Assembly: GCA_963663475.2 (NCBI GenBank)
Contig: CAXXJV010000001.1
Location: forward strand, 896,001 to 960,000
Source: Candidatus Cloacimonadales bacterium
GTDB taxonomy: Bacteria > Cloacimonadota > Cloacimonadia > Cloacimonadales > JAFGVF01
Reading direction: 5' to 3'
DNA length: 64,000 nucleotides
Notes under the pieces: model-generated
Told to the model about the DNA's origin: nothing
What the model saw: the letters and a program-made list of their open reading frames with translations, nothing else
The model's database searches: none
In this document: positions 1 to 16,221 of the stretch, piece after piece
Numbering within the stretch: the stretch's first letter is position 1
Layout of the letters: each line of letters opens with the position of its first letter
Translations under genes and position numbers: made by a program

Positions 1-2069
1 GAGTGAATCAGTTTTTTATTGAAATTAGTTTTAAAATCAACAAAAGTAGGACTAGTAATTAACTCATTTCTTAAATTTTTCAGCTGTTCTTGATTATAGT
101 TATCTTCACCTAATCGCAATCTTCCTAACTGTTGATAAAGATTATCTTCTAGAATATCATCATAACGATTTTCCTTAAGTAGTTTTATGAAATATTTAAA
201 TATGAATTTTTCATAGCTATTCAATTCATGGTGACTTATATTTTTTTTCCTTAGATAATTATCTGCTAGTAAGAAATCTATGTAATCACCAGCTCCTAAG
301 ACAGACGTACTTTTAACTATTGAATTTCTAGCTTCATTATCCTGAGGAGAATGGTTAGATTGGAAAAAGGTAAGGTCTATTGTTCCAGCCCCAATATCAA
401 TAGCTAAAATATTCTCCACTCTTCTTCGTAAATTAAACTCAATTCTCTTGAAATAATTTTCATAGCCCCTACCGTCTCTCAATTTGATGAAGTCATTTCT
501 TTTCTTTTTATCATAGTTCGCTATAACAGCCTCTGCTTCTGTTATTATATTTACATCAAGACAATTTTGAGACTGATAAAATGCATCCTTTAAAGTCTTC
601 TTATTTGCTAAAGTAAAAGTTTTGGGAACAGTTATGATATATTTTTTCAAAATCGTATCATCTAACCCTATTCTTCTAATCAGTGCATTTGTATAAATTT
701 CAATAATCCTTTCAATCTCAATTCCTTGGTATTGGTTATGACCAAGGATTAACTTAATTGCTGGGACTAGTATTTTTTTATTATCTTGATTTAAGGCATT
801 AAGGTCAGACCATCTTTCAATAAAAGAGAACATTCTAATCTCAATTTTTTTAATAAAAATATTTATGATATTTTCAAGAGTTGAGTAACTTTCTTCAAAG
901 ATATTCATTAAATGATTTACATCTTGATTATTGTTATTCTGGATTTGCCTGCATATGTCTGACCACAATTCATTATTGCCTAACAGAGTTTGAAATTCAC
1001 TGATAAAGGGAGATATTTTTTGCTGGGTTTCTTCATTAATCCAAGAATTTGGTCCAAAAATACTAGCATGTTGTATTTTTAGATTAGCTATTGTGGGGTG
1101 GGCAATACTAGCAATAAAGTCAATTTTCTCTTTTAATTGACCCAATAGATATTGTCTAATCTCAGAAATAGGTATACTGGTATCGAGAACACCTATTGCA
1201 CTAAGAATATGAGGATCTTTTTCTATAACCCCAGCATTGCTATCTGGATTATCATTGAATACCTTTGTCTTAATAAGTCCATTTTGATATTTATAATTAA
1301 CCACTATTCCACTCGTTCCCATATCTATAGCAATATTAACAAAATTATCAACTCGAATAATAATAATTTCATAAGTATGTTCAATTTCTCCATTATTTAG
1401 TATGTCTATGCTGATTCTGTTTTCACCAATATTCAAGTTTTGAAGATTGATGTTGGGCTTATTATTGAATTCTTGATCGTCTAATCTTAGGTTTAATTTA
1501 TAATTATTATTTACATCATTATCTCTCATATTTGATATACTTATATGGATTCCTTTGTGGTGACAATAAACAATATATCTTTTTCTTGAACTATAAAAAT
1601 TATGCTGGCCAATACGTAATTGGAAGCTATCTGTGTCTGGTAAGTTTCTAATGTTAGGGGAGTATTCTATTTCTCTTAAGGTTTTATTATTAAAACTCAA
1701 ATATATTTTTACGTCAATTTTCGGAATCAACCCATCACCAATACCTTTCCAATTTGGATCTTGATGATTTAGCTTTATTTGTAAGCAATTATTATCACTT
1801 TTTAAAATTTCAGCAGTTAATTGTGTTACAAGTGTTTCTTGAAAAATATCATTGTGGAAGATATAAGCTTCTATTTTAATGATGTCTTGCAGGATATAGT
1901 CACTAATGACATATTTATGTAACCACCATAGATTGGATATAACAAGGCTACCAAGATAATTGTTATCAGCTAAATCAGATTCATACTTAACACTAATATC
2001 TTTAATTTGTAGTACTTTTTTAACAATTTCATTTTTTTTATCATCAGGGATAATACTTGAAATAAACAT
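1..2069 (-). CDS. Hsp70/actin-fold ATPase domain protein, 3'-truncated by window edge (not in ORF track)
   Basis: Manual translation from ATG 2069 (RBS AAGGAGG upstream): MFISSIIPDDKKNEIV...; in-frame motifs IAIDMGTSG (~1310-1335), IITVPKTF (~615-638), ITEAEAV (~525-545), ILAIDIGAGTIDLT (~370-410), LGAGDYID (~275-300). Confidence 0.8.
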   Translation of the reverse strand, partial: MFISSIIPDDKKNEIVKKVLQIKDISVKYESDLADNNYLGSLVISNLWWLHKYVISDYILQDIIKIEAYIFHNDIFQETLVTQLTAEILKSDNNCLQIKLNHQDPNWKGIGDGLIPKIDVKIYLSFNNKTLREIEYSPNIRNLPDTDSFQLRIGQHNFYSSRKRYIVYCHHKGIHISISNMRDNDVNNNYKLNLRLDDQEFNNKPNINLQNLNIGENRISIDILNNGEIEHTYEIIIIRVDNFVNIAIDMGTSGIVVNYKYQNGLIKTKVFNDNPDSNAGVIEKDPHILSAIGVLDTSIPISEIRQYLLGQLKEKIDFIASIAHPTIANLKIQHASIFGPNSWINEETQQKISPFISEFQTLLGNNELWSDICRQIQNNNNQDVNHLMNIFEESYSTLENIINIFIKKIEIRMFSFIERWSDLNALNQDNKKILVPAIKLILGHNQYQGIEIERIIEIYTNALIRRIGLDDTILKKYIITVPKTFTLANKKTLKDAFYQSQNCLDVNIITEAEAVIANYDKKKRNDFIKLRDGRGYENYFKRIEFNLRRRVENILAIDIGAGTIDLTFFQSNHSPQDNEARNSIVKSTSVLGAGDYIDFLLADNYLRKKNISHHELNSYEKFIFKYFIKLLKENRYDDILEDNLYQQLGRLRLGEDNYNQEQLKNLRNELITSPTFVDFKTNFNKKLIH

Positions 2070-2086
2070 TTCATTCCTCCTTAGAA

Positions 2087-5002
2087 TTATAAGTTGTTAT
2101 ATTCTTCTTCGATTCTAGTCAAAGAGTAGCTAGAGATAATTAAAATAGTAAATGATGGGATAACAAATAATATATTCGAGAATTTGGCATGGCTTAGTAA
2201 ACAAGCTGGAATACCGACTATCGGAGATGTCCCTGCTACATTACCTATAGTAATAAGGTAATGGGAAATAATTAGTCCAGTTATAGCTAAAATGATATTA
2301 TTATAAGTTTTTTTTATTAGTGCTATTTCAGGATATATACTGTTAATATTACCAGATTTTTTTATGCTATTGAAGAATAACCAGAAAATTATCGATGCTA
2401 ACCATACAATTCCCCACCTTTTATATATAAAAAAGAAAAAGGATAAGGAAAAGTCATCTTTAATCTGTGGGACATTATCCAGTAGTGAAATTGAAGATAT
2501 GTTGCTGTTCAAAAAATGAGAAGATAGGTAAAATTGTTCATTTAGTATTGTCCATGGGTATCGGCACATGAAAAATCTTTGATGAAGGTAGGTTCCATTT
2601 GCAAAGTTGAAATAAGTTATGTAGCAGATGAAAAATAGCATTAATAGAGCAAAAGAAGAAAGATGTCTACTCTTTTCTTGGAGGAAAACTATTATAAATG
2701 ATATACTGAAAATAACCATATAGGATTGGTCATCCAAGCAAAAGGCAAAAGATATCGCTAGAATAAAACAGAGAATCCAACCCCAATACCTTGATAATGA
2801 ACTATTTTTACTATAAATATAAGTTGCCATAATAATAAATATTAGTTTTATTAATTCAAAGATAGGAAGATGTCTTCCAACCATAAGGATTCCTAACTCA
2901 TTTCCTCGAATTATCTGAAAAAAGAACAAAAGTAAAGAGTAGAAAAATATTTGAGGGAAAATATTGTATTTATTCTTATTAGCTTCAGTATTAAGGGTAC
3001 TATTTAAAAGGCCAAAAAAACCTTTTTTAAATGGGTCATCAGCTATATAATAAAATTTTTTAAATAAATAGCCGATAATAGAGACTGTAGCCAATGAGAA
3101 GATAATTCCGACTTTTAGTGACCTAATAAGTTCATTTTGCAAATAGTGAAGTCTGGGGGAATAAAAACTCATGATTGTCAAGTTTAACAAACCTTGGTAA
3201 CATAGTAATATAAAGATCAAGATAAAAGTTATTATTTGATTATCTATCCTTAAATATTGCATCAAGAAAATAACAAGAAGAGCAATAATGGAAAATATGC
3301 CTGTGATTTTGAGAATCTTATGGCGTATATTAACAGGTTTTGAGTAATTAATTTTAGTTTTCGACGAATGCTGACTATTTGTAAGTTCATTAGAAAATGT
3401 AAAATCATCTTGGTAGTAGTACTTTCTATTCTCATTTTTTGTATTAGTTATCACTAATAAACTATCTTCTTTTGAAATATCAAAATCAGAGTAGCCGATT
3501 CTAAATGATGGTTGATCATTAAATATTCTTCTTTCTTGAAGTTCATATAAAGAGTTAAAGTTATTTTCTCCCATAGATTTAACTTGAATATTGTGTTTTG
3601 CTCTAGGGCTGTAGTTAATTATTGAAAGGGTAATATCAGTTCTGAAAGAACTTAAACACAATAATATAATAGCTATTAGGAAAGTGACTCTAAAAAAGAG
3701 CATTTTTTTCTGCCAAAGTCTTACCAAAAGTCTTACAATGATTACTTTGATTGCATTCACAATCTTCTTCCATGCTCTATTATTATTAGGTTCTTCTATA
3801 TCATTAACTAAGGGAATATTTTCAATCTTACTCTTATCAGAAGAAAAAATTAAAATCAAATGAATGGTAGCTATATGAATAAAAACAAAAAGAATTATAA
3901 TGTCTAAGGAACTAACCAATGAAATATTACTAATAAGTGGTGTTTGGGTGATTATTAATGACATCCAGTTTAATATTAAATACGTGATAAAAAGGTAAAT
4001 AAGTGATAACACAAAAGTATTAATCAGGGATAATACTTTTGATAAGAGCTTATTTTTTACTGATGACGATCCTATCCTAAATGGCAATGTAAGTATATAA
4101 AATAATCGTGAAGCAAAGAATATAAAAACTCTTAAATTTAATCCTAAGTCGATGTTGATAGTTTCTCCAGTGAGGGTATAATTATGTAAAATATATAAAT
4201 ACATGGTCATGAATAAAAATAATACAATTAGAATTAATATAAGAAATGTTAAAGAGTTATAACTAAAAAACATCGATAGAATAATTAGAGTAATACAGAA
4301 GCAAAAAAACACGATAAACTTAGGAATTTTATTCCATAGTTCTCGATTAAGTTCAACCACCTTACTAGAATTTCTTATAATATATGAGGAAAAATCATTT
4401 AAGTATTTTTTATAAGGTGAGGAAAAGATTCCAATCGCTAATATTAGTAGTATGAGGGAAGGTATAAATCTATTTAAGTATTCAGGTAGATTAAATAAAT
4501 TTGATGTAACCCTAAAAATAACTTTCTGTGGAGAATTAAATTCTTTTGGAGGGAAAAAAGTAAAAGGTAAAGCGCTCCAAAGAAAATGTATTTCTTTATT
4601 ATTGCCATAAGAAATAATCTTAAAAAACTTATAGTCATTAAAGTCAATTTGATTATTATTTAGATTGATTTTATCTCCATCTTTCAACTTGTAATTTGAA
4701 AGGTAACTATTTCTTAGAACAACTCTATTAGTTGCTGATAAATTCTTGAATGAAAAATTTTCATAATCAGAAGAAGTAATAGCTAAATGATGATCACTAA
4801 TTTTGGGTAGATTTAAAACTATATCATTATCATCTGAAGAGCCAAGAGTTAATTCAAAGTCATCACTATTAGCAGGTAAAGGATAGATGTAACTAGTTTC
4901 AGATACTTTTATTATTTTTTCATTTTCCAATTTATGATAGGGAACGATAAAACTTATCATAAACAAAATAATAAAAATTGTGATAGTCAATATATTTCTC
5001 AT
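2087..5002 (-). CDS. FHA-like domain plus multi-TM region plus C-terminal FtsW/RodA/SpoVE (SEDS)-like domain
   Basis: N-term LTLGSSDDNDIVL..ISDHH..LKDGDKI (FHA-like); C-term LPIFELIKL, VPQIKDDFS, GNVAGTSPIVGIPACLLS resemble SEDS QPSE, PExHTDF and GxxPxxGIPLP motifs. Confidence 0.7.
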   Translation of the reverse strand: MRNILTITIFIILFMISFIVPYHKLENEKIIKVSETSYIYPLPANSDDFELTLGSSDDNDIVLNLPKISDHHLAITSSDYENFSFKNLSATNRVVLRNSYLSNYKLKDGDKINLNNNQIDFNDYKFFKIISYGNNKEIHFLWSALPFTFFPPKEFNSPQKVIFRVTSNLFNLPEYLNRFIPSLILLILAIGIFSSPYKKYLNDFSSYIIRNSSKVVELNRELWNKIPKFIVFFCFCITLIILSMFFSYNSLTFLILILIVLFLFMTMYLYILHNYTLTGETINIDLGLNLRVFIFFASRLFYILTLPFRIGSSSVKNKLLSKVLSLINTFVLSLIYLFITYLILNWMSLIITQTPLISNISLVSSLDIIILFVFIHIATIHLILIFSSDKSKIENIPLVNDIEEPNNNRAWKKIVNAIKVIIVRLLVRLWQKKMLFFRVTFLIAIILLCLSSFRTDITLSIINYSPRAKHNIQVKSMGENNFNSLYELQERRIFNDQPSFRIGYSDFDISKEDSLLVITNTKNENRKYYYQDDFTFSNELTNSQHSSKTKINYSKPVNIRHKILKITGIFSIIALLVIFLMQYLRIDNQIITFILIFILLCYQGLLNLTIMSFYSPRLHYLQNELIRSLKVGIIFSLATVSIIGYLFKKFYYIADDPFKKGFFGLLNSTLNTEANKNKYNIFPQIFFYSLLLFFFQIIRGNELGILMVGRHLPIFELIKLIFIIMATYIYSKNSSLSRYWGWILCFILAISFAFCLDDQSYMVIFSISFIIVFLQEKSRHLSSFALLMLFFICYITYFNFANGTYLHQRFFMCRYPWTILNEQFYLSSHFLNSNISSISLLDNVPQIKDDFSLSFFFFIYKRWGIVWLASIIFWLFFNSIKKSGNINSIYPEIALIKKTYNNIILAITGLIISHYLITIGNVAGTSPIVGIPACLLSHAKFSNILFVIPSFTILIISSYSLTRIEEEYNNL

Positions 5003-6009
5003 TGTTTTTCAACCTTGAGTGTGTATAAGCCAAGATCATAAGTCTCGCCATATTCTATTTCTTTACCATTAATTATCCATTTATTAGTTTCTAGCCTAAT
5101 TTTTTTGGGAAGCTCTGAAGATTCAGATGGGAGATACACTTTCTTGTAGGTGGCATGATTAGTGAAAAAATACTTAGGTATTTCTATTTTTAAATCTATC
5201 TCGCAAGCAAAATCAGATTCAATATCTTCTCTCAGGTTAATACAGCTTGCTCGACTGGCATTACATGAATAACAAATTTCTCCACTGTCATCTTTATAAA
5301 TTCCGATAACTGCTATGTCTTTCCCATTTCCATCTACAAATTCAAAGTTTTTACTGTTAAGATATAGTTCCAGTTTAGTAGTATTCCCTAATCTCTCAAT
5401 CACTTTCTTAGCAATTTCAGATAGTGATGCAAATTTAATTTTTTTTATTAATGTGAATTTACTTAGAAGGTCATTAATATTTATTACTCTTTCCTTTTCA
5501 ACGAGTTCAATATTTTTTTTCTCATCTTCAAAGCTAATTACTTGAGGATTAATATCTCTAATTTGCACAAAATCATTACTAATAACAGATTTACTGTTTG
5601 AATTCATAATAGTAGCAAATGGATCACTACTTATTAAGCAAAATTCATTATCTTTAATATTAAGAGAAATCGCTTTTTTATATGTGAGATTAGATGTACC
5701 ATTTAAATAATACTGATTAGATAAGAATTTATCATGAATCATTAGATAAGCTTTATTGAAGTCAATATGGGAGTATATGGTTTTTAAGTCAATTTTTATC
5801 CCAAGATAAGCTTTTGGCTCTTCGACATCTCCTATAAAGTATCTAAAAACTGAAGGAAGTATCAATGTTAGCTTATTTTTTTCATTACTAATTACTGATT
5901 CCATTTCCTTATTATCTTCATTTTTTGCCTGTATTTTTTCCTTAATCAATTTAGTAATATAGTTATTTGAAATCTCATTTAAATCTAAATTAATTTGAAT
6001 TATTTTCAT
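4999..6009 (-). CDS. hypothetical soluble protein (336 aa)
   Basis: Long ORF with RBS; 4-bp overlap with downstream gene. Confidence 0.75.
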   Translation of the reverse strand: MKIIQINLDLNEISNNYITKLIKEKIQAKNEDNKEMESVISNEKNKLTLILPSVFRYFIGDVEEPKAYLGIKIDLKTIYSHIDFNKAYLMIHDKFLSNQYYLNGTSNLTYKKAISLNIKDNEFCLISSDPFATIMNSNSKSVISNDFVQIRDINPQVISFEDEKKNIELVEKERVININDLLSKFTLIKKIKFASLSEIAKKVIERLGNTTKLELYLNSKNFEFVDGNGKDIAVIGIYKDDSGEICYSCNASRASCINLREDIESDFACEIDLKIEIPKYFFTNHATYKKVYLPSESSELPKKIRLETNKWIINGKEIEYGETYDLGLYTLKVEKQ

Positions 6010-6021
6010 GTTTATCCTTCC

Positions 6022-9000
6022 TTAATAAGTTGATAAGTTCTGATTATTGATGACATAGTCTCGAAACTCTTTAAACAGATTTACAGCAATTTCACTTGTT
6101 TGGTGTACTGAGTTAAGAACCAAAGAAAAGTAATATGTTTCACCTTCATATTCCCAGATACCTACAAACCAAGAGTTGTTTAGTTCTCTTTCATTACTGA
6201 GAGTTGAAGTTCCAGTTTTTGCATATAATCTTCCTAGGTTAGGAGGATCTTTAGAATATTTTTCTCCAATGTATGATTTTAGTCTAGGCATATAAGAAGT
6301 AATTATATTATTATTTATTGAAATTGCCTGTCCATTATATATTTTTTCCCCTATTTTGATTGATTTGAATAAATATGGCAATTTGATATATCCTTCATTA
6401 ATTAAAGAAAGAACCATGAGTTGTTGAAAATTGGTTAGAGAAGGAGTAACATCACCAACGGCAGCTTGTACAAAATCCCAACTGAAAAGCTCATTGTTAG
6501 GTAGAAATGAAGGATTAACAATTAAATCTTCAGCTATTGTGTCATGAAACAATAGTGAATTTCCTAATGAATCTAATAAATTACCTGTATAGGTTAATCT
6601 TTGGTTAAAGAATAATTTATCTCTCCAATAGTTAAAAGGATAATTTAAATATTCGTCTTCTTTTAGGCAGTAACCTTTAGGGCGAATATATGTAATATCG
6701 TCATATGAGTCGATAAAATCAAGGTTCAGGTGTAACATAGCATAAGAAAAATAAGTATTATAGCTATGTTCTAAGGCTTTTTGCAAATTATTGTCAGTAG
6801 GAGTGAAAACTGTATTTTCAGTTTCAAAATTTTTATGATTAAGAGTAATATTTTTATCAGGAGAAAAGATAAATGACTTTCCTTTGATATTATTCCAGTT
6901 ATCATTTCCGTTATTCAAATTAGGATTGTTTGTATAATCATCATGTAATAGGATATCAACATATTGTAGTCTAATATCATCTTCTTCTAATAAGGAGTCA
7001 GCATGAAGTAGGGTCATGGCGTTAATAAGTTTAATAGTTGAGCCTGGTGTTGCAGGGCTTTTGAAGTTATGATTTAAGTATCTGTTATTGAACCCTGAAA
7101 CATTGCTTCCATAACTTAAATCAACCAATAAGTTTCTTTCATTTCTTGGGTTATCGAAATAAGTGGAGTCTATAGATGGGTATGATGCAGAAACTAATAT
7201 CTCTCCATTTCTTTTAGTTAGTAGAAAAGCTCCCCAGGGTTCTGTTTTATCGTTTACTAAATCTCCATCTTTAAAACTAAAGTCATTAACATAAGATTCT
7301 AAAAGTCTATGGGCATATTCTTGCCAATCAGAATTTATTGTAGTTTCTATTTCAATTTTTTCATTTTTATACTGATTGGATAGCTCTTTAAAGTATGATT
7401 CTAGTCCAACAGTTTGTTTGGATTTATTATCATAAAAACCAAGCAAATTACTAAGTCCTCTCAAAGAAGAATAATTTCTTTTAGAATCTGGTGTGGAAAA
7501 GGCCAATATATTATTGTCCCTATCATAAATATTTGGTAATATAATATCAATTTTATCAAAAACATTCCTACTAACAGAAATGTCTTTTAGTTTTCCTTTG
7601 CTAAGTAGTAATAATTTGTTAGTAGGACCTAATGGTGAAGTATAAGGTTTAATCTGTACAGCAATGACTCCATTGGCAGATACCATATCTCCATTACTTA
7701 GCAATCTCCATGTTGAGTCTTGAATCTCATAAACAAGAACATCATTATTAAAGTCATAAAATATTGGACTTGAAACAGGCATATCATATCTAAAATAGTA
7801 GAATGCTTGTTCACTCTTTGGAGATATATTCTCATAGGGAAGAATGATTTTATTATCGTCAAGAGAATCGACCCTAACAGCTTGCAATCTATTAGAAGTG
7901 TAATGTTTTTCTCCAATATTTCGCATGTTATCGGTAAATGAACTTGGAGCAATATAACTGTTTAAGCTGCTTCTCCAGTTTCTATTTGTTGGAAATCTAG
8001 TATTATTGATTTCTAAGTATCCTTTTAAATAAGGATTTGGAAATAGTTTGACACTATTGTTATGTGTGATAAGGGATATTTGAATATTCTCTCTGGGAGC
8101 TGAGTTAATAATAATTTTTTTATTTCTATCACTGAAATCTCCTGAAATTACCTTATCAAAACCTCTGAGTAAATAATCACCAGTTGCACAAATCTTAACA
8201 TAACTTACAGTTTCTCCATCCTCAAGATTAAAATCAGTAGGTGTAAATATGAATTCTCTTTGGTGATTGACTGGAGGGTTTATCTGTAAGGGGAAGGCAA
8301 TAAATGATCCGAAATTTCGCTTAAAATAAGTGTCTCTATTATAACTAATAGCTCTCTCTCTAACATTGTTATGACTAACAAACCATGAATTATCCGTTGT
8401 AACAAATCTTTGTGTTTTATTCACGTGATTGTATATTGCGAAGGTAGCTGATATTCCTGGCTGGAAAATCAAACTTTGAGTTTCTGTTATAAGTTCTTTT
8501 AATAATGGTTTTAGTGCCAATTCATGATGCTTATTGATTTTCTTTAGTTTTTCATCACAGAGTAAAGAATCAGTAATGATGTCTCTTTTATAGTTTAAAG
8601 AATTATTTAATGGCCTAGAAAGCATATTATCTAGGTATTTGGTTTTGAAAGTGAACATTACTTTTTCATAATCTTTTTTAAAAATTGCTAAGGAAACACT
8701 ATTAGGAATAATTGCATTTTTTCTATAATCTATTGGTTTTAAAAGTTTGTTTTGAGAAACAATTATATTCTTTTTATCTCTACTTAGCTCTTTATGAATC
8801 TCAAGACCAGATTTATTTTTGAAAATTAACAGAGCTGATCTTGCTAGTTGGTCAAGAGAAAATTTGTTTTTATCTTGAATACTTATTGATACTTTCAGAT
8901 CATCTCTCAAATAATCACTTTGACTATGATTATTTAAAGGATGTTTATAATACATCTTATGTTTTTCAAGCTTCTGGACTATTTTTAAATTAATTTCTTT

Positions 9001-9615
9001 TTCTGCTAATTTTATAAGTATTGAATTTTCTTCAGTTAAAAGCGTAGGAAGTCTAACAGGGGTTAGATTGTTATTATTTCTCAGATAAAGATATTCGTCT
9101 GAATTAGGATATGTTGGATAAAGTACTAGTTGATTTTCTTGAAAGTCTAAACTTGCAATTAAATCTGGAATAAAAGTGTGGTCAGAAGATTTGTCAATAA
9201 CAATACTAGATTTTTTTTGATCAAAACCTATGTGAATAGTTCTACTACTAAGATCACTTCTATAAGCGTCGAAAATTGTCCTGTAGTAGAAATCTTTAGG
9301 CCTTGTATATAGTTCAAAATCAAGATCTTCAAAAGATATGATATCTCCATTTTTTAATTCATTAGTATTTGAAGTAATCAATTTATCGTTTATATAAGTA
9401 TTGTTAATATGAGATTTCGAAATCCAATTGTTATTTTCAAAATTAATTTCCAAAAGATCTGATCTACTTAAAAGTTTATCAGTCTCAACAATTATATAAT
9501 TATAATCGCTAGATACTTCTCCATTTTTCATTATACTGATGAGTTTTAATGAAAGGGATAGCATTGTAAGAGCTAAGAAAAGGACAATGGCTAAATTACG
9601 ATATAATATTTTCAT
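6022..9615 (-). CDS. Large class B penicillin-binding transpeptidase with N-terminal TM and FHA-like region
   Basis: PGSTIK (SxxK), HSYN (SxN), AKTGT (KTG); pedestal motifs IYDRDNNILA, VGLE, ETTINSDWQ, GEILVSASYPS; N-term NTYINDK..LKNGDIISF is FHA-like. Confidence 0.85.
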   Translation of the reverse strand: MKILYRNLAIVLFLALTMLSLSLKLISIMKNGEVSSDYNYIIVETDKLLSRSDLLEINFENNNWISKSHINNTYINDKLITSNTNELKNGDIISFEDLDFELYTRPKDFYYRTIFDAYRSDLSSRTIHIGFDQKKSSIVIDKSSDHTFIPDLIASLDFQENQLVLYPTYPNSDEYLYLRNNNNLTPVRLPTLLTEENSILIKLAEKEINLKIVQKLEKHKMYYKHPLNNHSQSDYLRDDLKVSISIQDKNKFSLDQLARSALLIFKNKSGLEIHKELSRDKKNIIVSQNKLLKPIDYRKNAIIPNSVSLAIFKKDYEKVMFTFKTKYLDNMLSRPLNNSLNYKRDIITDSLLCDEKLKKINKHHELALKPLLKELITETQSLIFQPGISATFAIYNHVNKTQRFVTTDNSWFVSHNNVRERAISYNRDTYFKRNFGSFIAFPLQINPPVNHQREFIFTPTDFNLEDGETVSYVKICATGDYLLRGFDKVISGDFSDRNKKIIINSAPRENIQISLITHNNSVKLFPNPYLKGYLEINNTRFPTNRNWRSSLNSYIAPSSFTDNMRNIGEKHYTSNRLQAVRVDSLDDNKIILPYENISPKSEQAFYYFRYDMPVSSPIFYDFNNDVLVYEIQDSTWRLLSNGDMVSANGVIAVQIKPYTSPLGPTNKLLLLSKGKLKDISVSRNVFDKIDIILPNIYDRDNNILAFSTPDSKRNYSSLRGLSNLLGFYDNKSKQTVGLESYFKELSNQYKNEKIEIETTINSDWQEYAHRLLESYVNDFSFKDGDLVNDKTEPWGAFLLTKRNGEILVSASYPSIDSTYFDNPRNERNLLVDLSYGSNVSGFNNRYLNHNFKSPATPGSTIKLINAMTLLHADSLLEEDDIRLQYVDILLHDDYTNNPNLNNGNDNWNNIKGKSFIFSPDKNITLNHKNFETENTVFTPTDNNLQKALEHSYNTYFSYAMLHLNLDFIDSYDDITYIRPKGYCLKEDEYLNYPFNYWRDKLFFNQRLTYTGNLLDSLGNSLLFHDTIAEDLIVNPSFLPNNELFSWDFVQAAVGDVTPSLTNFQQLMVLSLINEGYIKLPYLFKSIKIGEKIYNGQAISINNNIITSYMPRLKSYIGEKYSKDPPNLGRLYAKTGTSTLSNERELNNSWFVGIWEYEGETYYFSLVLNSVHQTSEIAVNLFKEFRDYVINNQNLSTY

Positions 9616-9629
9616 AATAATCCTAGTTG

Positions 9630-11426
9630 CTATTGTTTAACAAATATAGTTAGATTAGTATAGATGTGCTCATCGTCATATATGCACATAGTTTCTACCT
9701 CATAGATACTACCACTATCTAATGAATCATATACTGTTTTGAATAAATCTGGTTCAAATTTATTTAGAATAGAGTACTTTTTTGATTCAAAACTAATGTT
9801 ATCACTGAGTAAAGTGCCATCAGGTTTTGTAATTAAGGTATCATTAAACATCAGTGGAACTGTCTTTGGATAAAGGAAATTAAAGTTGTAAATTTGCTTG
9901 GCTACAGAAATTAAATCTTTAAATAAAATATTGATTATTGGATGTAATGAATTTATTTTGCTATCTTTATATAAACTAATTAACCTAATTCTATTTAGAT
10001 TATTTAGGTAATCCTTTAAAGCGCTTTTATTTTTAACATTTATATTACCTAGGAGGGATAAATAATTCATGTAATCATTAGTAATATCAAGAATTTCCGC
10101 TTCTTCTTTTATTTGATTGAAAATTGTTTCATATCTTTGTAAGCAACTTTCAACAAAACTTTCGCTATGTTCTAGTTTTATTTCTTGGATTTTAGCTTCG
10201 TAGCCTTCAATAGCCTTTTCTTTATCTGCTTTTATTTGTCTTTCCGATTCTTGGCTAATAGAAAGAAGTTTCTCTAACTGAGATTTCTCTTTTTTAATCT
10301 CTTTATACTTTGTTTCTAAAGATGATAAGAGTTTTAAATCATAGTTAAGCCTTTCATTTTTAATTTTTTCGTTCTTAAACTCTATTTTTTGGTTTTCCAA
10401 CTCACTTTCTTTAACTTGAATATCACTATTTTTCTCATCTAGCTTATTCTGTAGTTGGACTATTTCCTGATTTAAGCTACTTATAGCATTTCTTCTATAT
10501 CTTTCTTCTGAAAATAAATTTCCAATTAATTCACTAAGAGTTTCAATTGAATCTCTATGTTTATTGAACTTTTCTTGGGCATCTTTTGTTAGATTATTAT
10601 GGACAAAATTAATTTTTTCATCATCAGCATGTGAAAATCCAGATTTGTTATTAAAATGAGTAATTTTAATATTTGTATTATTTTTTGATTCAATCAACTT
10701 CTTTATTTGAGATAATAAATCATCATAACAAAAAACATTTTCCTGAAGAGAACGAAGTAATTCCTTATTATTTTGTTCTAAATCTTTAACATTTTTTTTG
10801 TATTCAGCAATTGCTTTATCTTCTATTTTAGAGGGCTGAAGGGGTTTATCAAGTTCAGTGATTGGTCTTCTTATCGATTTTGGGAAAGTGGTTAATGGCT
10901 CGTTTTCAATAACTTGCTCAGACTTAGGTGATATATTTTGATTTTTCAATTGACTTTTTTGAATGCTAACGCCCTCTTTATAAGCAATCTTCTGTGTATT
11001 AACCTTACTCTTAATATCACGATTTTTACGCTTAATGACTATTAGGCAACGAATAGTACTTATAAGAAAGATTAGACAAAGAATAGATACTATTAGTAAA
11101 ATTGAATCATTATTTAATATTTTTTCCTTTTTATTAGAAATATTATCAACGGATTCTTTATTTATCTTAGTACTTAGTACATCTCTTTCAATAACTTTAG
11201 TTGAACTTTTGATGTTATTTTTAATATGTTCAATAACCTGGTCGAGTTCAGAAGAAACAGAATGTAGAAATATTATGTGAATAGTATCTATTTTAGTTGA
11301 TTTTGTAGTATTGTCAGTATTAGAGTAGTCTGTAGAATCTTTTATACTTTCATCTTTCTCCTCTATTGCTATCATTATTGAAGATAATGCAAGAGTGATA
11401 ATTAATATCAAGATTATTTTTTTCAT
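9630..11426 (-). CDS. Signal peptide/TM-anchored coiled-coil protein with possible GrpE-like C-terminus
   Basis: N-terminal hydrophobic signal, TM ILLIVSILCLIFLISTI, long heptad-rich region, tail SGSIYEVETMCIYDDEHIYTNLTIFVKQ. Confidence 0.7.
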   Translation of the reverse strand: MKKIILILIITLALSSIMIAIEEKDESIKDSTDYSNTDNTTKSTKIDTIHIIFLHSVSSELDQVIEHIKNNIKSSTKVIERDVLSTKINKESVDNISNKKEKILNNDSILLIVSILCLIFLISTIRCLIVIKRKNRDIKSKVNTQKIAYKEGVSIQKSQLKNQNISPKSEQVIENEPLTTFPKSIRRPITELDKPLQPSKIEDKAIAEYKKNVKDLEQNNKELLRSLQENVFCYDDLLSQIKKLIESKNNTNIKITHFNNKSGFSHADDEKINFVHNNLTKDAQEKFNKHRDSIETLSELIGNLFSEERYRRNAISSLNQEIVQLQNKLDEKNSDIQVKESELENQKIEFKNEKIKNERLNYDLKLLSSLETKYKEIKKEKSQLEKLLSISQESERQIKADKEKAIEGYEAKIQEIKLEHSESFVESCLQRYETIFNQIKEEAEILDITNDYMNYLSLLGNINVKNKSALKDYLNNLNRIRLISLYKDSKINSLHPIINILFKDLISVAKQIYNFNFLYPKTVPLMFNDTLITKPDGTLLSDNISFESKKYSILNKFEPDLFKTVYDSLDSGSIYEVETMCIYDDEHIYTNLTIFVKQ

Positions 11427-11469
11427 AATATACCTTTGATCTTATTTTGTAACTAGTGAATATCTGCTA

Positions 11470-11889
11470 TTAATCCAAAGCATTTTTTATATTGCTGATT
11501 GTTGTTTGAATTTGATTGTTATGAAAGGAATAACTTTCCAGAGATTTTTGAATAAAAGTTCTTAAGTCATTGTATTTTTTTTCAAAACTATTATTTCTTA
11601 AAACTTTGTTTTCTTCCTTTAACTTTGTTTTTAGTACTTCTAACTCTTCATTTTTTTTTTGTAATGAACGTTTTTCTTTTGTTAACTCTTCATTACTTCG
11701 TAAAATGTTTTCTTTTTCTCTTTGTAGCTGTTGGATTTTTGATTCAAAATCACTAAGATTGTTTTTGTTTAGTTCATTATTTAAATTCTCTTGGTTAAGT
11801 ATTTCATTATGTCGTTTTAAGGTTGATACTTGTTTTTCTAATTCTTCAATTTGTTTTTTTAGTAAATTTTCATTTGTAGTTTCTTCCAT
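11470..11889 (-). CDS. coiled-coil hypothetical protein (139 aa)
   Basis: RBS AGGAG; E/K/L/N-rich heptads. Confidence 0.75.
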   Translation of the reverse strand: MEETTNENLLKKQIEELEKQVSTLKRHNEILNQENLNNELNKNNLSDFESKIQQLQREKENILRSNEELTKEKRSLQKKNEELEVLKTKLKEENKVLRNNSFEKKYNDLRTFIQKSLESYSFHNNQIQTTISNIKNALD

Positions 11890-11917
11890 AATATCTCCTA
11901 TAGTAATTAGTCATTTA

Positions 11918-14900
11918 TTATTGATTAGGTAGGTTTGTAAAAGGCCATAAGCTAATATTATAGCCAATGTTTTTAGAAAAGTCAATGTCAGATAACTCAA
12001 CAGGCCGAGGTTCATTATCATCAATCTTAATTGTTAAGTCGTTATCATTTCTTATAAGTTCTACTGAATAATTTCCATTTTTTCTAGGTACTTGATATTT
12101 ACCAATATGAATATAAAATGGAGACTCTTTTACTAAAGCTGCATTTTTATTACTTTTATATTCTTTGGCTATTATAGAAGAACATTTGAAAAGCTCTAAA
12201 TAAGCTTCCTCATTACCTATAATCAAACTACTAGGGCAATTATGAATATTGAACTGATTATTTCCATTCTGGCTTCTTTCGAAGAAATACATGTGTTTAT
12301 TTATGTTACAATAAAATCCATAAAGGAACTTGTTTTCTTGTAGCTCTCCAAAATCTATATTAGATATCTTGTTGTTGCCAATACCATAAAAGATATCATC
12401 ATATATCTTTAATCCCTCAACAACTTGGCCTTTGGGTCTTTCGGGAATAATGAAAGAAGGAACAAAATTAAATGATGATAAAGTCGCCTTAATAATTTCT
12501 TGTATTTTAGGTGAATAGCCTGCTAACTTACTTCCACGTCCAACAATAGCTACATCTATTTTTTGTTTTTCTTGAACATGTCGAGTATCAAAAATTAAAC
12601 AAATAGCTTCTTTTATAGAATCAATTAAATACTTCCTAGTATTGTCATCTTTCCAAAAGGTTGATAGATTGACTAGTAAACTATTTATTTCATCTTCATT
12701 TTTATTCATGTAAGAAGTATAGTCTTTCTTGAAAGTTTTTTTATCTGATGTGGATAAAATATATTGATCATTGTGGGTAAAAAATTTCTTTTGTTTGTTA
12801 ATGAAATTTTTTGCTTTTAACAGTTCTCTTTTCTCCATCAACCTATAATTTGGAAATATTGCTTGAGTTATGAGACTATCAATAGCATCACCTGCAATGT
12901 TATAGCTAAATCTATCGAGAACTTCAACATCCCATCTATTTGTAATGCTCCATTTAATCAAGCTAAGATCAGTTGTTCCTGCTCCGATATCAATAACCAA
13001 TAAAAACCTATTTGTTAACTGAGCATCTTGATTTCTAAAATGATTTAAAATGTTTAAAGCAACAGCATCTGATTCGGAGATAAAACTAACTTCACACTGC
13101 TCTTGATAATATCCAACAAGTTGCTTCTCTATTTTTTCTTTAACAATCTTAAGAGTGTTATTGGGTAATGATATAAAAAATTGCATTGAGGTATTGTTCA
13201 TTATTTCTGGTTTTAAATCCATGTAATGATCAAGAAACTGAATAGTAGTCTGTAGATATAGCTTGTCCATTGGGATATTGAATATCGAAAGGTTTTCTTT
13301 ATCAATTAAAGGTTTGAATAATTCTCCATCATAGTATCCTGGTTCAGGAGTATCTTCGGAATTTATAGTTAAATTCATAAGTTCCCAGAGGTTAGGTAGT
13401 TTTTCATACTGGATAAAATATTTTTCAGAAGGTATTATATTTTCAGGTTCAGCTATTGAATTTAGCCTTGGGATTTTGAACAGACATTGCGATGGAGTTT
13501 GATACTTATCCAAATACTTTATACTATCATTCTTGCTTTTCATAAAATCAAAGAATGTTAAAGTCGAGATAAATTCATCATCAAAATTTGGTATATCTGC
13601 TGATGTTATCAGATTTTGCTCGTTTCTAGCATATATTTGGTTAATTTTAACTAACTTACTTTGATTACCGATACCAGCTATTTCAGCATAGTTATTATTT
13701 TCATCATAAGATCTGATATTTATAGCATTAGCAGAAGTACCTTTATCAAAATAGACTGCATAGTTTCTAGGAGGATTTAGTTTAATTAGTGTCTCTTTTG
13801 GGAAGTTCGCAACTGTTATGTTGTCTGGTCCTATTACTTTCACAACAAAAAATAATTTGACCCTACATTTTACGCAAGAGCTAATTTTAATTGAATATTC
13901 TTTACTTGCACCGATAGGAATGTTTACATTGTCTAGGATATATTCATAATTAAACGTTTTTTGGTTAACGCTAAAAGGAAGCTCGTTTATGCTATTGGGC
14001 TTAGCGTTATCCTTATTCTCTGGTATCGAACGCAGTTTAATAATTAACTTAAAATTATTATATAGCTCTGATATATTATTAATAGTGATAGTCCCAATGC
14101 TCTGAGAAACAATATTATGCGATCTTTGGTTGTAAATACCTTCTTTTTTTAGTTTATCAATATAGAAGAAATTCGGGGTAAAATTTATTTCAGGGTAAAC
14201 TTCATTTTTATTTCTCCAAATAGAGAAAGGGCAACTTGAGTTGTTAGAATTCAAGGTAAAGTTTAAAAAATCAGATGGATTAGAGTAAGAATAATTATTC
14301 AAGTCTAAAGTTACTTTAATTGTAAAAGACAATCTGCCTCTATATAGTTTCTTGTTATTTTCTTTGCTCAAGAGAGTTATTGACTTTTTATCCCCATTAT
14401 TGGACTTTCTTTGATAAAATTTCATTGAGTTATTTTTTTTAAAATTAGAACTCAAAATATCTAAGCAATCTAAGCCAATGATTACATTTTTTCCATCAGC
14501 ATGCGTTATATTAATAGGGATAGTAATTTCAATATCTAAGTATTTTAAAGCCTTTGTTTCCATCAAAAAGTTAAATTCAAAAGAGATGGGGTCTTTTTTT
14601 GAGAAAATTGCTTTATCTGGTCTCAATAAGGATATTGATTTTATTTCCCAGTCTTTATTAACCTTAGTAGTAGGAAGAAATAGGAAATAACCAAAAATAA
14701 GCAAGCAAATAACTATAACAGTGGCAGAGATAATTAAAACAATAATATATTTTTGTGTATCACTAATCTCGTCCTGAATATCTGGAGACTTGACAAATTC
14801 ATATATCTTTTTAAGCATCTTTATGTATGCAAAGGGTTCAAAATACTTATTATAAGAGATAGGAATTACAGATGAGTTTTTTATTAAGAATGGATAATCC

Positions 14901-15973
14901 TGTGGTCTAAGATTCATTCCTTTAATATATTTATTATTAAGTTTGTGAGATACACCATAATTTATATTTACAACCGATCCATTTATATATTCACTTACAT
15001 CAATAAGTGTCTCATGTTCAAAATTAACATTTCCGAAGTTTTGATTGTTGATAGATAAGTTAAATTTTACATCATGGTTTTGGTTTTCAGTATTTTCATG
15101 ATGGGGTTTAATGAATAAATATGTTTTTTCTAAAACATGGTACGTTTCAAAATTCAAAACTGGTATAGGAACAGAAAAATTAAAATCACTAGGTTTAATT
15201 TCAAGTTCTTTAACACAAATTCTTATATGTTGTTGATCAGGCCTCTTAAAATCGAGATCAATTGGGTAATAAGTAAATAATTGGTTGAAGCTTTTCAGAG
15301 AATCATAGAAATTAAAAAGGTCTTCTTCATTACTTTTATAACCTGAATTATCTAAAAAAGCAAAGGCATCTCTATTTTCTTCATCAGCATTTACCGCTCT
15401 AAAAGATTCCGAATTAACAATTTCATCTGATATCCTAATAATAACAATTCTGTTGAAAGATAAATAATCATATTTAGTAGTTAGCAGTGTTGCGAAATAC
15501 TCAAGTGAGAACAAACGGGTAGATAACCTATTGAAGAAAGATGAAATGCTTTTTTGAGTTATCAAATAATCTAAAACTTTAAGTGAATTATTAATATTTT
15601 TCTCATTAGCTTTTTCTGGTTCAAATTCAACTTTAAGATAATCCTCTAGTGAAGTATACATGTACATATGGTTTTTCTGAAATTGCTCTCCAAAACCAAA
15701 TTTTACAAGAGTAAAATAGTCTGTATCCTCTTTCATATTTAGTTTTTCAATAACTCTTTGAAAATTGTAGGTAGATTCTAAATCTTTATCAAAAAAAGAG
15801 CATATGTTTGACCATTTGTTTAGATTTGATGTACCATTATCAGTATACATTGTTTGGCTGCCATCAATTGCAAAAATATATAGGGTAGAACTTGAATTTT
15901 CATTTGAAAACAAGTTATATGGGATTATTGCTAATAAAAAAATAATTGTTAATAATTGTAAATAACGAAACAA
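11918..15973 (-). CDS. Signal peptide-vWA-like-TM-Hsp70/actin-fold ATPase fusion protein
   Basis: Likely start TTG 15973 after AAAGGAG (ORF track start 16018). Signal MFRYLQLLTIIFLLAII; MIDAS-like YIFAIDGSQTM and IIRISDE; TM YIIVLIISATVIVICLLIFGYFLFL; Hsp70 motifs VYFDKGTS, ISLPNN, ISESDAVA, LVIDIGAGTTDLS, IAGDAID, IVGRGSKL. Confidence 0.8.
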   Translation of the reverse strand: MFRYLQLLTIIFLLAIIPYNLFSNENSSSTLYIFAIDGSQTMYTDNGTSNLNKWSNICSFFDKDLESTYNFQRVIEKLNMKEDTDYFTLVKFGFGEQFQKNHMYMYTSLEDYLKVEFEPEKANEKNINNSLKVLDYLITQKSISSFFNRLSTRLFSLEYFATLLTTKYDYLSFNRIVIIRISDEIVNSESFRAVNADEENRDAFAFLDNSGYKSNEEDLFNFYDSLKSFNQLFTYYPIDLDFKRPDQQHIRICVKELEIKPSDFNFSVPIPVLNFETYHVLEKTYLFIKPHHENTENQNHDVKFNLSINNQNFGNVNFEHETLIDVSEYINGSVVNINYGVSHKLNNKYIKGMNLRPQDYPFLIKNSSVIPISYNKYFEPFAYIKMLKKIYEFVKSPDIQDEISDTQKYIIVLIISATVIVICLLIFGYFLFLPTTKVNKDWEIKSISLLRPDKAIFSKKDPISFEFNFLMETKALKYLDIEITIPINITHADGKNVIIGLDCLDILSSNFKKNNSMKFYQRKSNNGDKKSITLLSKENNKKLYRGRLSFTIKVTLDLNNYSYSNPSDFLNFTLNSNNSSCPFSIWRNKNEVYPEINFTPNFFYIDKLKKEGIYNQRSHNIVSQSIGTITINNISELYNNFKLIIKLRSIPENKDNAKPNSINELPFSVNQKTFNYEYILDNVNIPIGASKEYSIKISSCVKCRVKLFFVVKVIGPDNITVANFPKETLIKLNPPRNYAVYFDKGTSANAINIRSYDENNNYAEIAGIGNQSKLVKINQIYARNEQNLITSADIPNFDDEFISTLTFFDFMKSKNDSIKYLDKYQTPSQCLFKIPRLNSIAEPENIIPSEKYFIQYEKLPNLWELMNLTINSEDTPEPGYYDGELFKPLIDKENLSIFNIPMDKLYLQTTIQFLDHYMDLKPEIMNNTSMQFFISLPNNTLKIVKEKIEKQLVGYYQEQCEVSFISESDAVALNILNHFRNQDAQLTNRFLLVIDIGAGTTDLSLIKWSITNRWDVEVLDRFSYNIAGDAIDSLITQAIFPNYRLMEKRELLKAKNFINKQKKFFTHNDQYILSTSDKKTFKKDYTSYMNKNEDEINSLLVNLSTFWKDDNTRKYLIDSIKEAICLIFDTRHVQEKQKIDVAIVGRGSKLAGYSPKIQEIIKATLSSFNFVPSFIIPERPKGQVVEGLKIYDDIFYGIGNNKISNIDFGELQENKFLYGFYCNINKHMYFFERSQNGNNQFNIHNCPSSLIIGNEEAYLELFKCSSIIAKEYKSNKNAALVKESPFYIHIGKYQVPRKNGNYSVELIRNDNDLTIKIDDNEPRPVELSDIDFSKNIGYNISLWPFTNLPNQ

Positions 15974-16016
15974 ATTTTCTCCTTTATTATTCATTATAAA
16001 GATATAATTATTGTTC

Positions 16017-16221
16017 AAGTCAAAAAAATCTATTAGCTAAAGAACATTCTATAGTTACTTTAGAATGTTACTATTTTTTGACTAAGCTTCGCCCTATGAC
16101 TTACAGAGCTTCTGAAGCACTTTTTATATGTAGTATGCGTTTCTTCCTTGTTTTGGAATTTTTATTGATCTTGATGCACTTAGTATGATTCAAAAAGAAA
16201 GTAAATTTCTTTCCTTGTCAA
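16017..16221 (-). promoter_or_regulatory. putative promoter (-35 TTGACA at 16221-16216) and structured 5' leader of the accessory operon
   Basis: TTGACA on minus strand without a clear -10; two hairpins at 16018-16083 and 16086-16118. Confidence 0.35.

Follow-up and report, generated by a model that had tools for sequence, protein, structure and literature searches.

A rare low-GC island in a Cloacimonadales bacterium combines a divergent SEDS-like protein and a class-B-type transpeptidase with Hsp70-type ATPases and a receptor-like protein bearing a vWA-like domain

A stretch of 64,000 nucleotides from a Candidatus Cloacimonadales bacterium (the window; G000:C1:896001-960000 in a genome of 3.30 Mb, two contigs and 33.0% GC) opens with an island of seven minus-strand open reading frames (ORFs), g1 to g7, that fill positions 1-16018 in the ORF listing. 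The island combines two known kinds of system, namely the accessory pairs formed by a SEDS protein and a class B penicillin-binding protein (bPBP), and the envelope or conflict systems built on a vWA protein and NTPases. It is read here, with a probability of about 0.4, as a horizontally acquired envelope module in which an extracytoplasmic sensor is coupled to private peptidoglycan synthesis in a context of conflict or stress.

In the direction of transcription the island begins with g1 (11918..16018, minus strand, 1366 aa), which encodes a vWA-like domain, a transmembrane (TM) segment and an Hsp70-type ATPase. On the same strand follow g2 (11470..11889, 139 aa), a small soluble coiled-coil protein; g3 (9630..11426, 598 aa), with a signal/TM segment, a second TM segment, a long coiled coil and a C-terminal domain; g4 (6022..9615, 1197 aa), with a TM anchor, an FHA-like domain and a class-B-type transpeptidase; g5 (4999..6009, 336 aa), a soluble protein with no family match; g6 (2087..5002, 971 aa), with an FHA domain, a polytopic region and a divergent SEDS-like domain; and g7, an Hsp70-type ATPase that is open at the window edge (3..2069, the first 689 of 894 aa) and whose full ORF of 894 aa lies at G000:C1:895385-898069. 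Successive genes are separated by 28, 43, 14, 12, -4 and 17 bp, the stop of g5 and the start of g6 overlapping by 4 bp. Beyond the window, g8 (276 aa, two TM segments and a coiled coil) begins 8 bp after g7, and g9, a 126-aa lipoprotein, follows at -4 bp. With gaps of -4 to 43 bp from g1 to g7 and of +8 and -4 bp on to g9, the genes g1 to g9 likely form one transcription unit. A sequence-only reading of the window had described seven tightly packed, co-directional genes with gaps of -4 to 43 bp, a higher AT content than in the remainder, and an operon continuing off the window; the gaps recomputed from the coordinates agree, the genes have 23-29% GC against 33.0% for the genome, and the operon does continue, g7 being complete outside the window and followed by g8 and g9.

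The GC profile steps up after 16 kb. Individual genes range from 23.3 to 29.0% GC, and in 2-kb windows the GC fraction is 0.258-0.301 over positions 1-16000 and 0.294-0.376 from 16001 on. The upstream intergenic region (16019..16717) holds the right-hand border, where DNA similarity to two congeners, which spans the NadB and GNAT genes, ends at ~16260 (G004) and ~16718 (G006), that is, 250-700 bp upstream of g1. Promoter-like hexamers in this region are not above the shuffle expectation, and no tRNA gene flanks the island. Searches of six congeners did not recover the island in any of them, and none of 40 relatives yielded the SEDS part of g6 (the sole match there being to the FHA domain only). 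Across the remaining 231 genomes of the phylum, a profile of the Hsp70-like ATPases matched strongly nowhere, and the matches in eight of them were weak and short. Queries with g6 and with alignment A2 returned only the near-copy P0001 among the 8000 word-sharing candidates scored. Near-copies occur in one other public source, at 79% for g6 (P0001), 72% for g7 (P0002) and 87% over the last 498 residues of g4 (P0014); all three come from the same kind of source, and the longest contigs of P0001 and P0014 are ~22 kb. One bioreactor metagenome run yielded pieces of 197-325 bp and mixed identity in 22 of 30 island bins, with no gene-bridging contig, and no relative was found among viral contigs, which says little either way. 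The sporadic distribution, together with the GC content of 23-29% against 33%, suggests horizontal transfer, and the island looks rare and horizontally acquired.

The assignment of g4 as an FHA-bearing protein with a class-B-type transpeptidase is a solid prediction. A TM anchor (residues 8-26), the only TM segment found even at a lax hydropathy threshold of 1.1, is followed by the FHA-like domain (~56-95; 19.0 bits in the Pfam scan, under the cut-off of 20.7, and 23 bits in a genome scan), by ~600 aa of unassigned fold and by the transpeptidase module (~712-1189). The last matches Transpeptidase in Pfam (PF00905; 4e-15, 56.2 bits against a cut-off of 22.1), and its catalytic motifs SxxK, SxN and KTG are all intact (STIK 859, SYN 951, KTG 1133). 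No transglycosylase match was found in Pfam or NCBIfam and no PBP_dimer match in Pfam; the NCBIfam model pbp2_mrdA aligns through positions 216-327 of its 593 at g4 743-877 (E 1.1e-6, far below its cut-off), and the PDB sequences that g4 matches best are class D beta-lactamases, in the region of KTG. Five long relatives of g4 were found (1191-1374 aa), each with one N-terminal TM segment and three of them with LysM; against the LysM-PBP of genome G018, a member of the same order and another family, g4 has 31% identity over ~480 aa (E 1.2e-36).

By four indirect lines, namely collinearity with a protein of G018, a shuffle test, PDB matches and invariant motifs, g6 is probably a SEDS protein. 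Its parts are arranged as TM1, an FHA domain (52-114; 4.3e-9, 37.1 bits against the Pfam cut-off of 20.7), a polytopic region (~170-460), a ~100-aa loop and the SEDS-like domain (~560-971), with ~20 hydrophobic segments after the FHA domain. The 936-aa FHA-SEDS protein of G018 matches PF01098 (8.3e-10), FHA (1.7e-7) and also the housekeeping SEDS proteins of the phylum, and g6 is collinear with it in BLASTP: the TM and FHA regions align at E 2e-7, and g6 817-939 aligns with 796-911 at E 2e-5, inside the SEDS domain of the G018 protein. The real score of 33.5 bits was reached by 0 of 150 window-shuffled versions of g6 in which the hydropathy profile was kept (21.9 +/- 1.7 bits, maximum 28.1). 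A joint profile of g6, P0001 and the G018 protein returned 11 PDB rows at E <= 10, eight of them FHA domains and the remaining three, the sole non-FHA ones, SEDS chains (RodA at 0.088, FtsW at 0.51 and 0.61). SEDS proteins have ~ten TM helices, an essential Asp on a helix preceded by a large outer loop, a conserved Glu/Lys and a C-terminal Pro/Gly/Ser motif. In g6, residues 563-962 hold ~10-11 hydrophobic segments, with a 53-aa loop (802-854) ahead of P845..D849/D850. The positions invariant between g6 and the G018 protein include E716/K719, P845..D849/D850 and P927..S937, presumably the SEDS catalytic hallmarks; the latter two groups sit on the SEDS consensus LPEArTDY and LPsTGvTLPFISY in hhalign. 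The N-terminal polytopic region has no similarity to SEDS proteins or to the C-terminal half of g6, and a single-sequence AlphaFold2 (AF2) model of the full-length protein, with a predicted local distance difference test score (pLDDT) of 38.9, is unusable.

Both FHA domains are predicted to be periplasmic. That of g4 lies between the sole TM segment and the transpeptidase, and it should therefore share the side of the transpeptidase, since only that TM segment precedes it; in g6 the Lys plus Arg counts of successive loops are 7, 0, 4, 0 and 10, and the FHA loop (23-171) is predicted outside. A G018 family member of g4 carries LysM, an extracytoplasmic wall-binding domain, at 212-253 (Pfam). 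The sequence-only reading had taken the FHA domains to read phosphothreonine (pThr) and had envisaged a kinase or phosphatase nearby. The predicted periplasmic location makes the former doubtful, and the Arg of the Gly-Arg pair, which is the phosphate-binding residue in FHA domains and is present in the best PDB match, the FHA domain of EmbR, is Ser in both g6 and the G018 protein. No kinase or phosphatase was found in the island by the Pfam and genome scans. The single clear Ser/Thr kinase of the genome lies ~0.95 Mb away, and the genome scan gave the FHA domains of g4 and g6 as the only two in the genome. These domains may instead be phospho-independent docking modules of the periplasm.

SEDS-bPBP pairs are core wall polymerases and major antibiotic targets, and the known pairs are guided by MreB or FtsZ/FtsA; in sporulating bacteria SpoVE-SpoVD is a third pair beside the housekeeping ones. 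In the present genome, complete housekeeping sets lie elsewhere, namely an elongasome set (mreB at C1:2410944, a PBP2-type gene at 2414674 and a rodA-type gene at 2415710) and a division set (ftsA-type at 2474041, ftsW-type at 2478389 and ftsI-type at 2485191), so that the SEDS-type/bPBP-type pair of the island is an accessory, third one. Both sets, mreB-mrdA-rodA and ftsA-ftsW-ftsI, are ~1.5 Mb from the window, which bears out the proposal that the island pair is separate from the divisome and elongasome, and with two housekeeping pairs present it is not the only SEDS/bPBP pair of the genome. Two class-A-size PBPs are also encoded, as are DnaK and GrpE at 1.41 Mb and a housekeeping FtsH at 63 kb. 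As with RodA-PBP2, FtsW-FtsI and SpoVE-SpoVD, a SEDS-type protein with many TM segments and a transpeptidase with one are encoded close together, here with g5 between them; the transpeptidase motifs are present, and the acidic and basic residues conserved in SEDS proteins are kept. Unlike these pairs, g4 and g6 are 2.5-3 times the usual length, each has an N-terminal FHA domain of predicted periplasmic location, g6 has an extra polytopic region of ~400 aa and g4 an extra region of ~600 aa, no mre, fts or mur genes accompany them, their distribution is sporadic, and g6 stays below every direct SEDS profile threshold.

Such likenesses are what a morphogenetic or developmental account would draw on. 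In it, the pair would belong to a third elongasome- or divisome-like complex, in the manner of SpoVE-SpoVD or of niche-specific PBPs. Such a complex would be unconnected with conflict and would make a special wall structure, or change the shape of the cell, in certain conditions, and the part of MreB, FtsA or a scaffold would fall to the Hsp70-like ATPases and the coiled coils. A SEDS protein and bPBP with an actin-superfamily ATPase and a coiled-coil scaffold does match the established picture of wall machines, the enzyme motifs are intact and two lipoproteins lie downstream. Accessory, differentially regulated peptidoglycan synthases also have a precedent in the accessible part of one report (PMC10492807). 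That the island was not found in six of six congeners, is low in GC and sits at a variable site would nevertheless be odd for a developmental programme, and in the analogous cluster of G018 genes of DndH-like, PLD-nuclease and kinase type lie among the others; the account is considered rather unlikely.

That g1 and g7 carry Hsp70-type ATPase domains, as the sequence-only reading had held, is likewise a solid prediction. The soluble g7 has a beta-rich N-terminal region, the ATPase domain and a C-terminal domain, and its motifs DMGTSG, DIGAGT and SGRS fall on invariant columns of a family of large Hsp70-like proteins. A HMMER search with g7 over 1.84 billion representatives gave 12 proteins at E <= 1e-3, one of them the 72% near-copy and eleven distant, of which ten are 1050-1430 aa long. 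Among 14 family members the K, E, D-x-G-A-G-T-x-D and G-R-S columns are invariant, the D-x-G column being so throughout the family alignment, and a C-terminal W-P is common; the C-terminal domains of g1 and g7 both end in a WP motif. Against this family, hhalign gives 99.4% for g7 (E 1.1e-21) and 98.9% for the ATPase part of g1 (E 1.9e-17), which has the phosphate-2 motif DIGAGT, and g1 and g7 are alike around this motif (BLASTP E 3e-4). The family profile matched 15 PDB rows at E <= 0.01, all 15 of them Hsp70 nucleotide-binding domains (NBDs), and the phosphate-1, phosphate-2 and adenosine motifs of such a domain are all present in the family. Pfam HSP70 was matched by three of eight relatives, all below cut-off (14.7-17.3 against 20.6 bits), and within g1-g7 no Pfam or NCBIfam match at or above cut-off was obtained for vWA, Hsp70 or SEDS; in the ESM Atlas, g7 lies beside large unnamed clusters and one with HSP70 in 60% of its members. 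The Hsp70 matches end at the NBD, no substrate-binding domain was found in the g1/g7 family, and no DnaJ match occurs among the island genes in Pfam scans of g1-g12. The ATPase residues of the family look catalytic, and by these features g1 and g7 are predicted to work like Hsp70-type ATPases and not as canonical chaperones.

The N-terminal half of g1 is where a sensor might reside. A signal/TM segment (16-34) is followed by a vWA-like domain with a beta-sandwich, a TM segment (425-443), a beta-rich region, the ATPase and the C-terminal domain; ~390 residues separate the two hydrophobic segments, and the ATPase is predicted to be cytoplasmic. The first 450 aa can be aligned with ~430-aa proteins of one family, each made of a signal peptide, a domain and a C-terminal TM segment and encoded ahead of distant Hsp70-like genes in metagenome contigs. 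Because residues 22-284 match this separate family (hhalign 72.9%, E 3.1e-5), g1 is a fusion of such a protein with the ATPase. In the alignment of this family D52, S166, D198 and E214 are invariant. Across 17 sequences D52, S166 and D198 are invariant, and the second and third positions of the metal-ion-dependent adhesion site (MIDAS) vary; g1 has D-G-S-Q-T at the MIDAS position, 52-56. An AF2 model of the g1 N-terminus, made from a 17-row alignment, is of low confidence (pLDDT 59.2), and its Foldseek/VIA matches are nearly all vWA-containing chains, followed by a fibronectin/Ig-like sandwich. Among them are Ku80 (Z 9.1), alpha2delta (Z 8.3), TFIIH p44, integrin beta, ITIH1, the Sec24 trunk and CMG2; the best VIA match has Z 9.1 over 176 residues at a root-mean-square deviation of 4.6, and Z values of 7-8 are common according to the caution of the tool itself. 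With modest confidence, and at the level of fold, the domain may be called vWA-like. The receptor-like topology that had been proposed for g1, with a predicted periplasmic vWA-like domain, one TM segment and a cytoplasmic ATPase, is supported.

Coiled-coil genes follow each of the ATPase genes, with the soluble g2 and membrane-anchored g3 after g1, and the membrane-anchored g8 after g7. The matches of g2, which has no TM segment, are weak and of coiled-coil type only (Rad50, RIMB1_N, LmuB). A signal/TM segment, a short periplasmic stretch, a TM segment (112-130), a long cytoplasmic coiled coil and a C-terminal domain make up g3, whose NCBIfam match is to an SMC-type coiled coil only; the C-termini of g3 and g8 compare at a BLASTP E of 2.1. 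A GrpE-like nature was considered for both and is not supported, the GrpE model reaching E ~8-9 over the coiled-coil part only in g3 and giving no significant match in g8. The domain calls of the sequence-only reading thus stand for FHA, the transpeptidase and the Hsp70 ATPases, hold at fold level for vWA and indirectly for SEDS, and find no support for GrpE. For g5 there is no match in Pfam, NCBIfam, PADLOC or the ESM Atlas, nor any hhalign match to the metagenome families or G018 proteins. A complex prediction of the ATPase part of g7 with g8 scored 0.00, which makes no call either way.

An analogous cluster occupies the minus strand of contig C22 in G018, from 39711 down to 2476. In order along that strand it encodes a LysM-PBP (1374 aa; Transpeptidase 1.8e-22), a DndH/HerA-like ATPase (PADLOC DndH 1.8e-51), a PLD-type nuclease, the FHA-SEDS protein, a kinase-like protein, three proteins of unassigned family, a kinase-Hsp70-like fusion (1303 aa; hhalign to the family 97.6%), coiled-coil proteins, a VWA_4-like protein (7e-4), an ABC-type ATPase, an fn3 protein and a TM-less FtsH-like protease with 39% identity over 935 aa to the one that lies beside the island in G000. 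At least four or five module types therefore recur together in an unrelated lineage.

The FtsH-like protease also marks the chromosomal site itself. It is TM-less, 1078 aa long with a ~600-aa acidic N-terminal extension, and lies on the plus strand at G000:C1:887417-890653 (L004:11417-14653), convergent to the island; it is 92% identical in congener G004 and ends the analogous cluster in G018. Between NadB/GNAT and this gene, G004 has a different low-GC set of 37 kb (G004:C1:460000-497500; L102, L108), with genes for a trypsin-vWA fusion (1147 aa), an SF1-type helicase and a GLUG-motif protein among others. The site is a variable hotspot. Separately, a ~260-aa protein of unassigned family, with 45% identity between the two genomes, is encoded at G018:C22:40218-41042 and G004:C1:496736-497509, adjoining the FtsH-like gene in G004 and lying at the opposite end of the 37-kb cluster in G018; an insertion of the G018 cluster between the gene for the ~260-aa protein and the FtsH-like gene would fit this arrangement.

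A variable site raises the question of whether there is a single system at all, or rather a mosaic, in which cargo genes without any relation to each other share an integration hotspot and the ATPases and synthase are merely adjacent. The variability among congeners, the occurrence of the FtsH-like gene alone in G004 and the small components not shared with G018 would all suit a mosaic. The operon-like spacing of nine genes with two 4-bp overlaps, the recurrence of at least four module types in G018, the near-copies P0001, P0002 and P0014 from the same kind of source, and the FHA domain common to both enzymes in a genome with only two such domains all speak the other way, and the mosaic is held to be unlikely.

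More distant relatives of the ATPases were examined at 21 of 31 metagenome loci, ten short or duplicate contigs having been left out (L067, L071, L075, L077, L079, L080, L082, L085, L088 and L090). In 17 of the 21 loci the ATPase gene comes after one for a vWA-like protein, and in 18 it is followed by one for a coiled-coil protein, whose family matches g8 at 65.8% (E 5.7e-5); further paralogues of the ATPase are frequent. Genes for a lipoprotein, for a small protein with three TM segments, for a Tubulin_2-like protein and for a protein of ~1150 aa are also present in eight loci; the Tubulin_2 match, scanned in one locus (L063), is 5.2e-5 and 23.1 bits, under the cut-off of 27. As an observation in its own right, L063:6762-20498 together with L064, L068, L072, L078, L081, L089 and L091 hold a conserved seven-gene operon that encodes a signal-peptide vWA-like TM protein, a ~1100-aa Hsp70-like protein, a coiled-coil protein, a lipoprotein, a 3-TM protein, a weak Tubulin_2 (FtsZl1)-like protein and a ~1150-aa protein. 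Since an FtsZl1-type gene is present at eight of the 21 loci, the trio of vWA-like, Hsp70-like and coiled-coil proteins appears to partner cytoskeletal or envelope machinery. A tubulin-like gene, whose presence nearby had been entertained, is thus weakly represented in distant relatives and was not detected in g1-g12.

Operons that unite FtsZl1 (Pfam Tubulin_2) with vWA proteins have been proposed to be membrane-remodelling systems (Makarova and Koonin 2010, PMC2875224). In the part of that paper available, they share with the island a vWA-type protein with a signal peptide or a TM anchor, cytoplasmic NTPases and many membrane proteins without an assigned family; the same part mentions neither Hsp70/DnaK nor peptidoglycan synthases. 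The nearest relatives of g1 and g7 do sit with a weak Tubulin_2-like gene at eight of the 21 loci. Unlike these operons, the island has no tubulin-like gene, GTPase, OmpA or kinase detected in scans of g1-g12. The GTPase-centric (GAP1-N2) conflict systems, in turn, contain tubulin, extracellular vWA, or HSP70 with GrpE (Kaur et al. 2020, PMC7159879). As far as the accessible text of that work goes, the island resembles them in an extracellular vWA domain on a TM protein, an HSP70-family ATPase that lacks a peptide-binding domain, coiled coils, a membrane-proximal setting and a sporadic distribution, and RodA, SEDS, FtsW and a PBP partner are not mentioned there. Unlike them, it has no GTPase, GAP1 or FNIII/fn3 component in g1-g12, and GrpE is unsupported. 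A third point of reference is the FHA-PP2C-RodA-PbpA-PknA/B operon of Actinobacteria and Firmicutes, which encodes separate cytoplasmic FHA proteins that read pThr, kinases and a phosphatase. Like that operon, the island unites FHA, SEDS and bPBP in one operon; unlike it, the FHA domains are fused to the enzymes and predicted periplasmic, and no kinase or phosphatase is found in the island. In the literature searched, no description was found of a SEDS-bPBP pair combined with a vWA/Hsp70-like chassis, and the family of large Hsp70-like proteins appears in no paper searched.

A likeness to conflict systems could also mean an abortive-infection type of system, with the SEDS/PBP pair as the part that does harm: once the vWA and ATPase parts had sensed a trigger, the private synthase would drain or misuse lipid II or build an aberrant wall, and the infected cell would stop growing. 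Its theme would be that of the NTPase and vWA conflict systems whose variable effectors are partly related to cell division, as the accessible part of the survey describes them (PMC7159879). The defence-like context in G018 and the sporadic distribution would agree with such a system, as would a local match of both ATPases to the PADLOC model PDC-M61B (1.6e-8 for g7 and 5.5e-6 for the other); this match is confined to the region of the phosphate-2 motif, and PADLOC finds nothing for g4 or g6. To our knowledge, no known defence system uses a peptidoglycan synthase as its effector, and this lack of precedent helps to make the proposal unlikely.

The reading preferred here, that of a sensor-coupled envelope module with its own peptidoglycan synthase, would work as follows. 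The vWA domain would bind a periplasmic ligand or detect damage to the envelope. The Hsp70-like proteins would assemble, driven by ATP, on the coiled-coil scaffold in a role like that of MreB or FtsA, and the assembled ATPases would position or activate the g6-g4 synthase, whose periplasmic FHA domains may link the SEDS protein with the PBP, or both with a common partner in the periplasm. The result would be local wall synthesis, a patching or walling off that answers stress or conflict and does not serve growth or division. The context of conflict is suggested by the DndH-like ATPase, PLD nuclease and kinases of the G018 cluster and by the trypsin-vWA fusion and SF1 helicase at the site in G004. 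The repair or envelope machine put forward by the sequence-only reading is confirmed in its gene layout, and its function continues to be something that we infer. It is possible, if somewhat unlikely, that the island further represents a new class of response to envelope conflict or damage, whose output is peptidoglycan synthesis laid down at the site of attack by a phage, predator or lytic enzyme; variants of the chassis would then carry other outputs, such as the FtsZl1 tubulin or kinases and nucleases.

Several points weigh against the preferred reading. Contact between the ATPases and the synthase is inferred, the periplasmic placement of the FHA domains is a prediction from hydropathy and charge counts only, and the vWA model, at pLDDT 59, deserves little confidence and has middling Z values of 7-9. 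Conservation of the neighbourhood elsewhere, which the sequence-only reading had looked for, holds for the module set of G018 and is limited, three instances being known (G000, the near-copy and G018). The small components are not detectably common to G000 and G018, hhalign of g1, g2, g3, g5, g8, g9 and g10 against the G018 proteins of unassigned family giving nothing above 3% probability, and the FtsH-like gene, which occurs in G004 without synthase genes, may be a neighbour and not a part. The SEDS identity of g6 is indirect and less sure than had been assumed. PF01098 does not match g6 at E <= 0.01 in Pfam, g6 is absent among the PF01098 matches of the genome at E <= 10, and it is missing even at E <= 100 from the matches of a hidden Markov model (HMM) made with 32 of the phylum's SEDS proteins. 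An HMM of the g6 C-terminus, with or without the G018 protein, gave negative or weak results against the genome ORFs and SEDS sets, and hhalign of g6 and P0001 against SEDS reached E 0.078 with very low probability.

On these grounds g6 could be some other polytopic membrane protein and g4 could act alone, for instance as a beta-lactam-insensitive or sensor-type PBP. The failed profile searches and the E value of 0.078 invite this alternative, as do the class D beta-lactamases that head the PDB matches of g4 over its KTG region. It has to contend, however, with the shuffle test, with the collinearity of g6 with a G018 protein that PF01098 recognises, with SEDS chains as the sole non-FHA rows from the PDB and with four hallmark motifs in the right order and spacing, and it is judged unlikely.

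The gene array extends 5-9 kb past the window edge. A MORN-repeat lipoprotein, g10 (Pfam 2e-19), begins 303 bp past g9, and 185 bp past g10 lies a radical-SAM/SPASM gene (L005:1054-2567; G000:C1:891054-892567, minus strand; Radical_SAM 1e-16, SPASM 2.2e-9), which overlaps by 4 bp a His-rich ORF of 145 aa with His/Asp/Thr repeats; the FtsH-like gene lies beyond it. The two overlapping genes, with which the low-GC region ends, look like one for a peptide maturase and one for its precursor. No terminator-like site was found downstream of g10-g12 on the minus strand. A plus-strand ORF of 172 aa (L005:2717-3235), antisense to the MORN-repeat lipoprotein gene, mirrors its repeats and is most likely not a gene. 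Farther out, the 2.6 kb between lepA and the FtsH-like gene (L004:8767-11416) hold no ORF >74 aa. A palindromic hairpin of ~80 nt at L004:9225-9309 is matched by microRNA (miRNA) models on both strands, and an Acido-Lenti-1-like match at L004:10835-10898 has 33.4 bits, below the cut-off of 37. An M6-type peptidase of 1031 aa (L004:2402-5497) ends in a C-terminal Por_Secre_tail sorting domain, which hints at a type IX-like secretion system in the organism.

If the preferred reading is true, wall synthesis would be recruitable as an accessory and transferable response, the island would offer an example of extracytoplasmic FHA domains, and a first handle would be gained on the family of large Hsp70-like proteins. 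A third and mobile SEDS-bPBP pair appears here to be guided by another ATPase chassis, one of Hsp70-like ATPases with a periplasmic vWA sensor, and the relatives of this chassis partner a tubulin-like protein and, in one genome, stand among genes of defence type. The predictions that follow, of topology, of lipid II polymerase activity and of phenotypes under challenge, bear on the long-unexplained operons of the vWA/FtsZl1 type.

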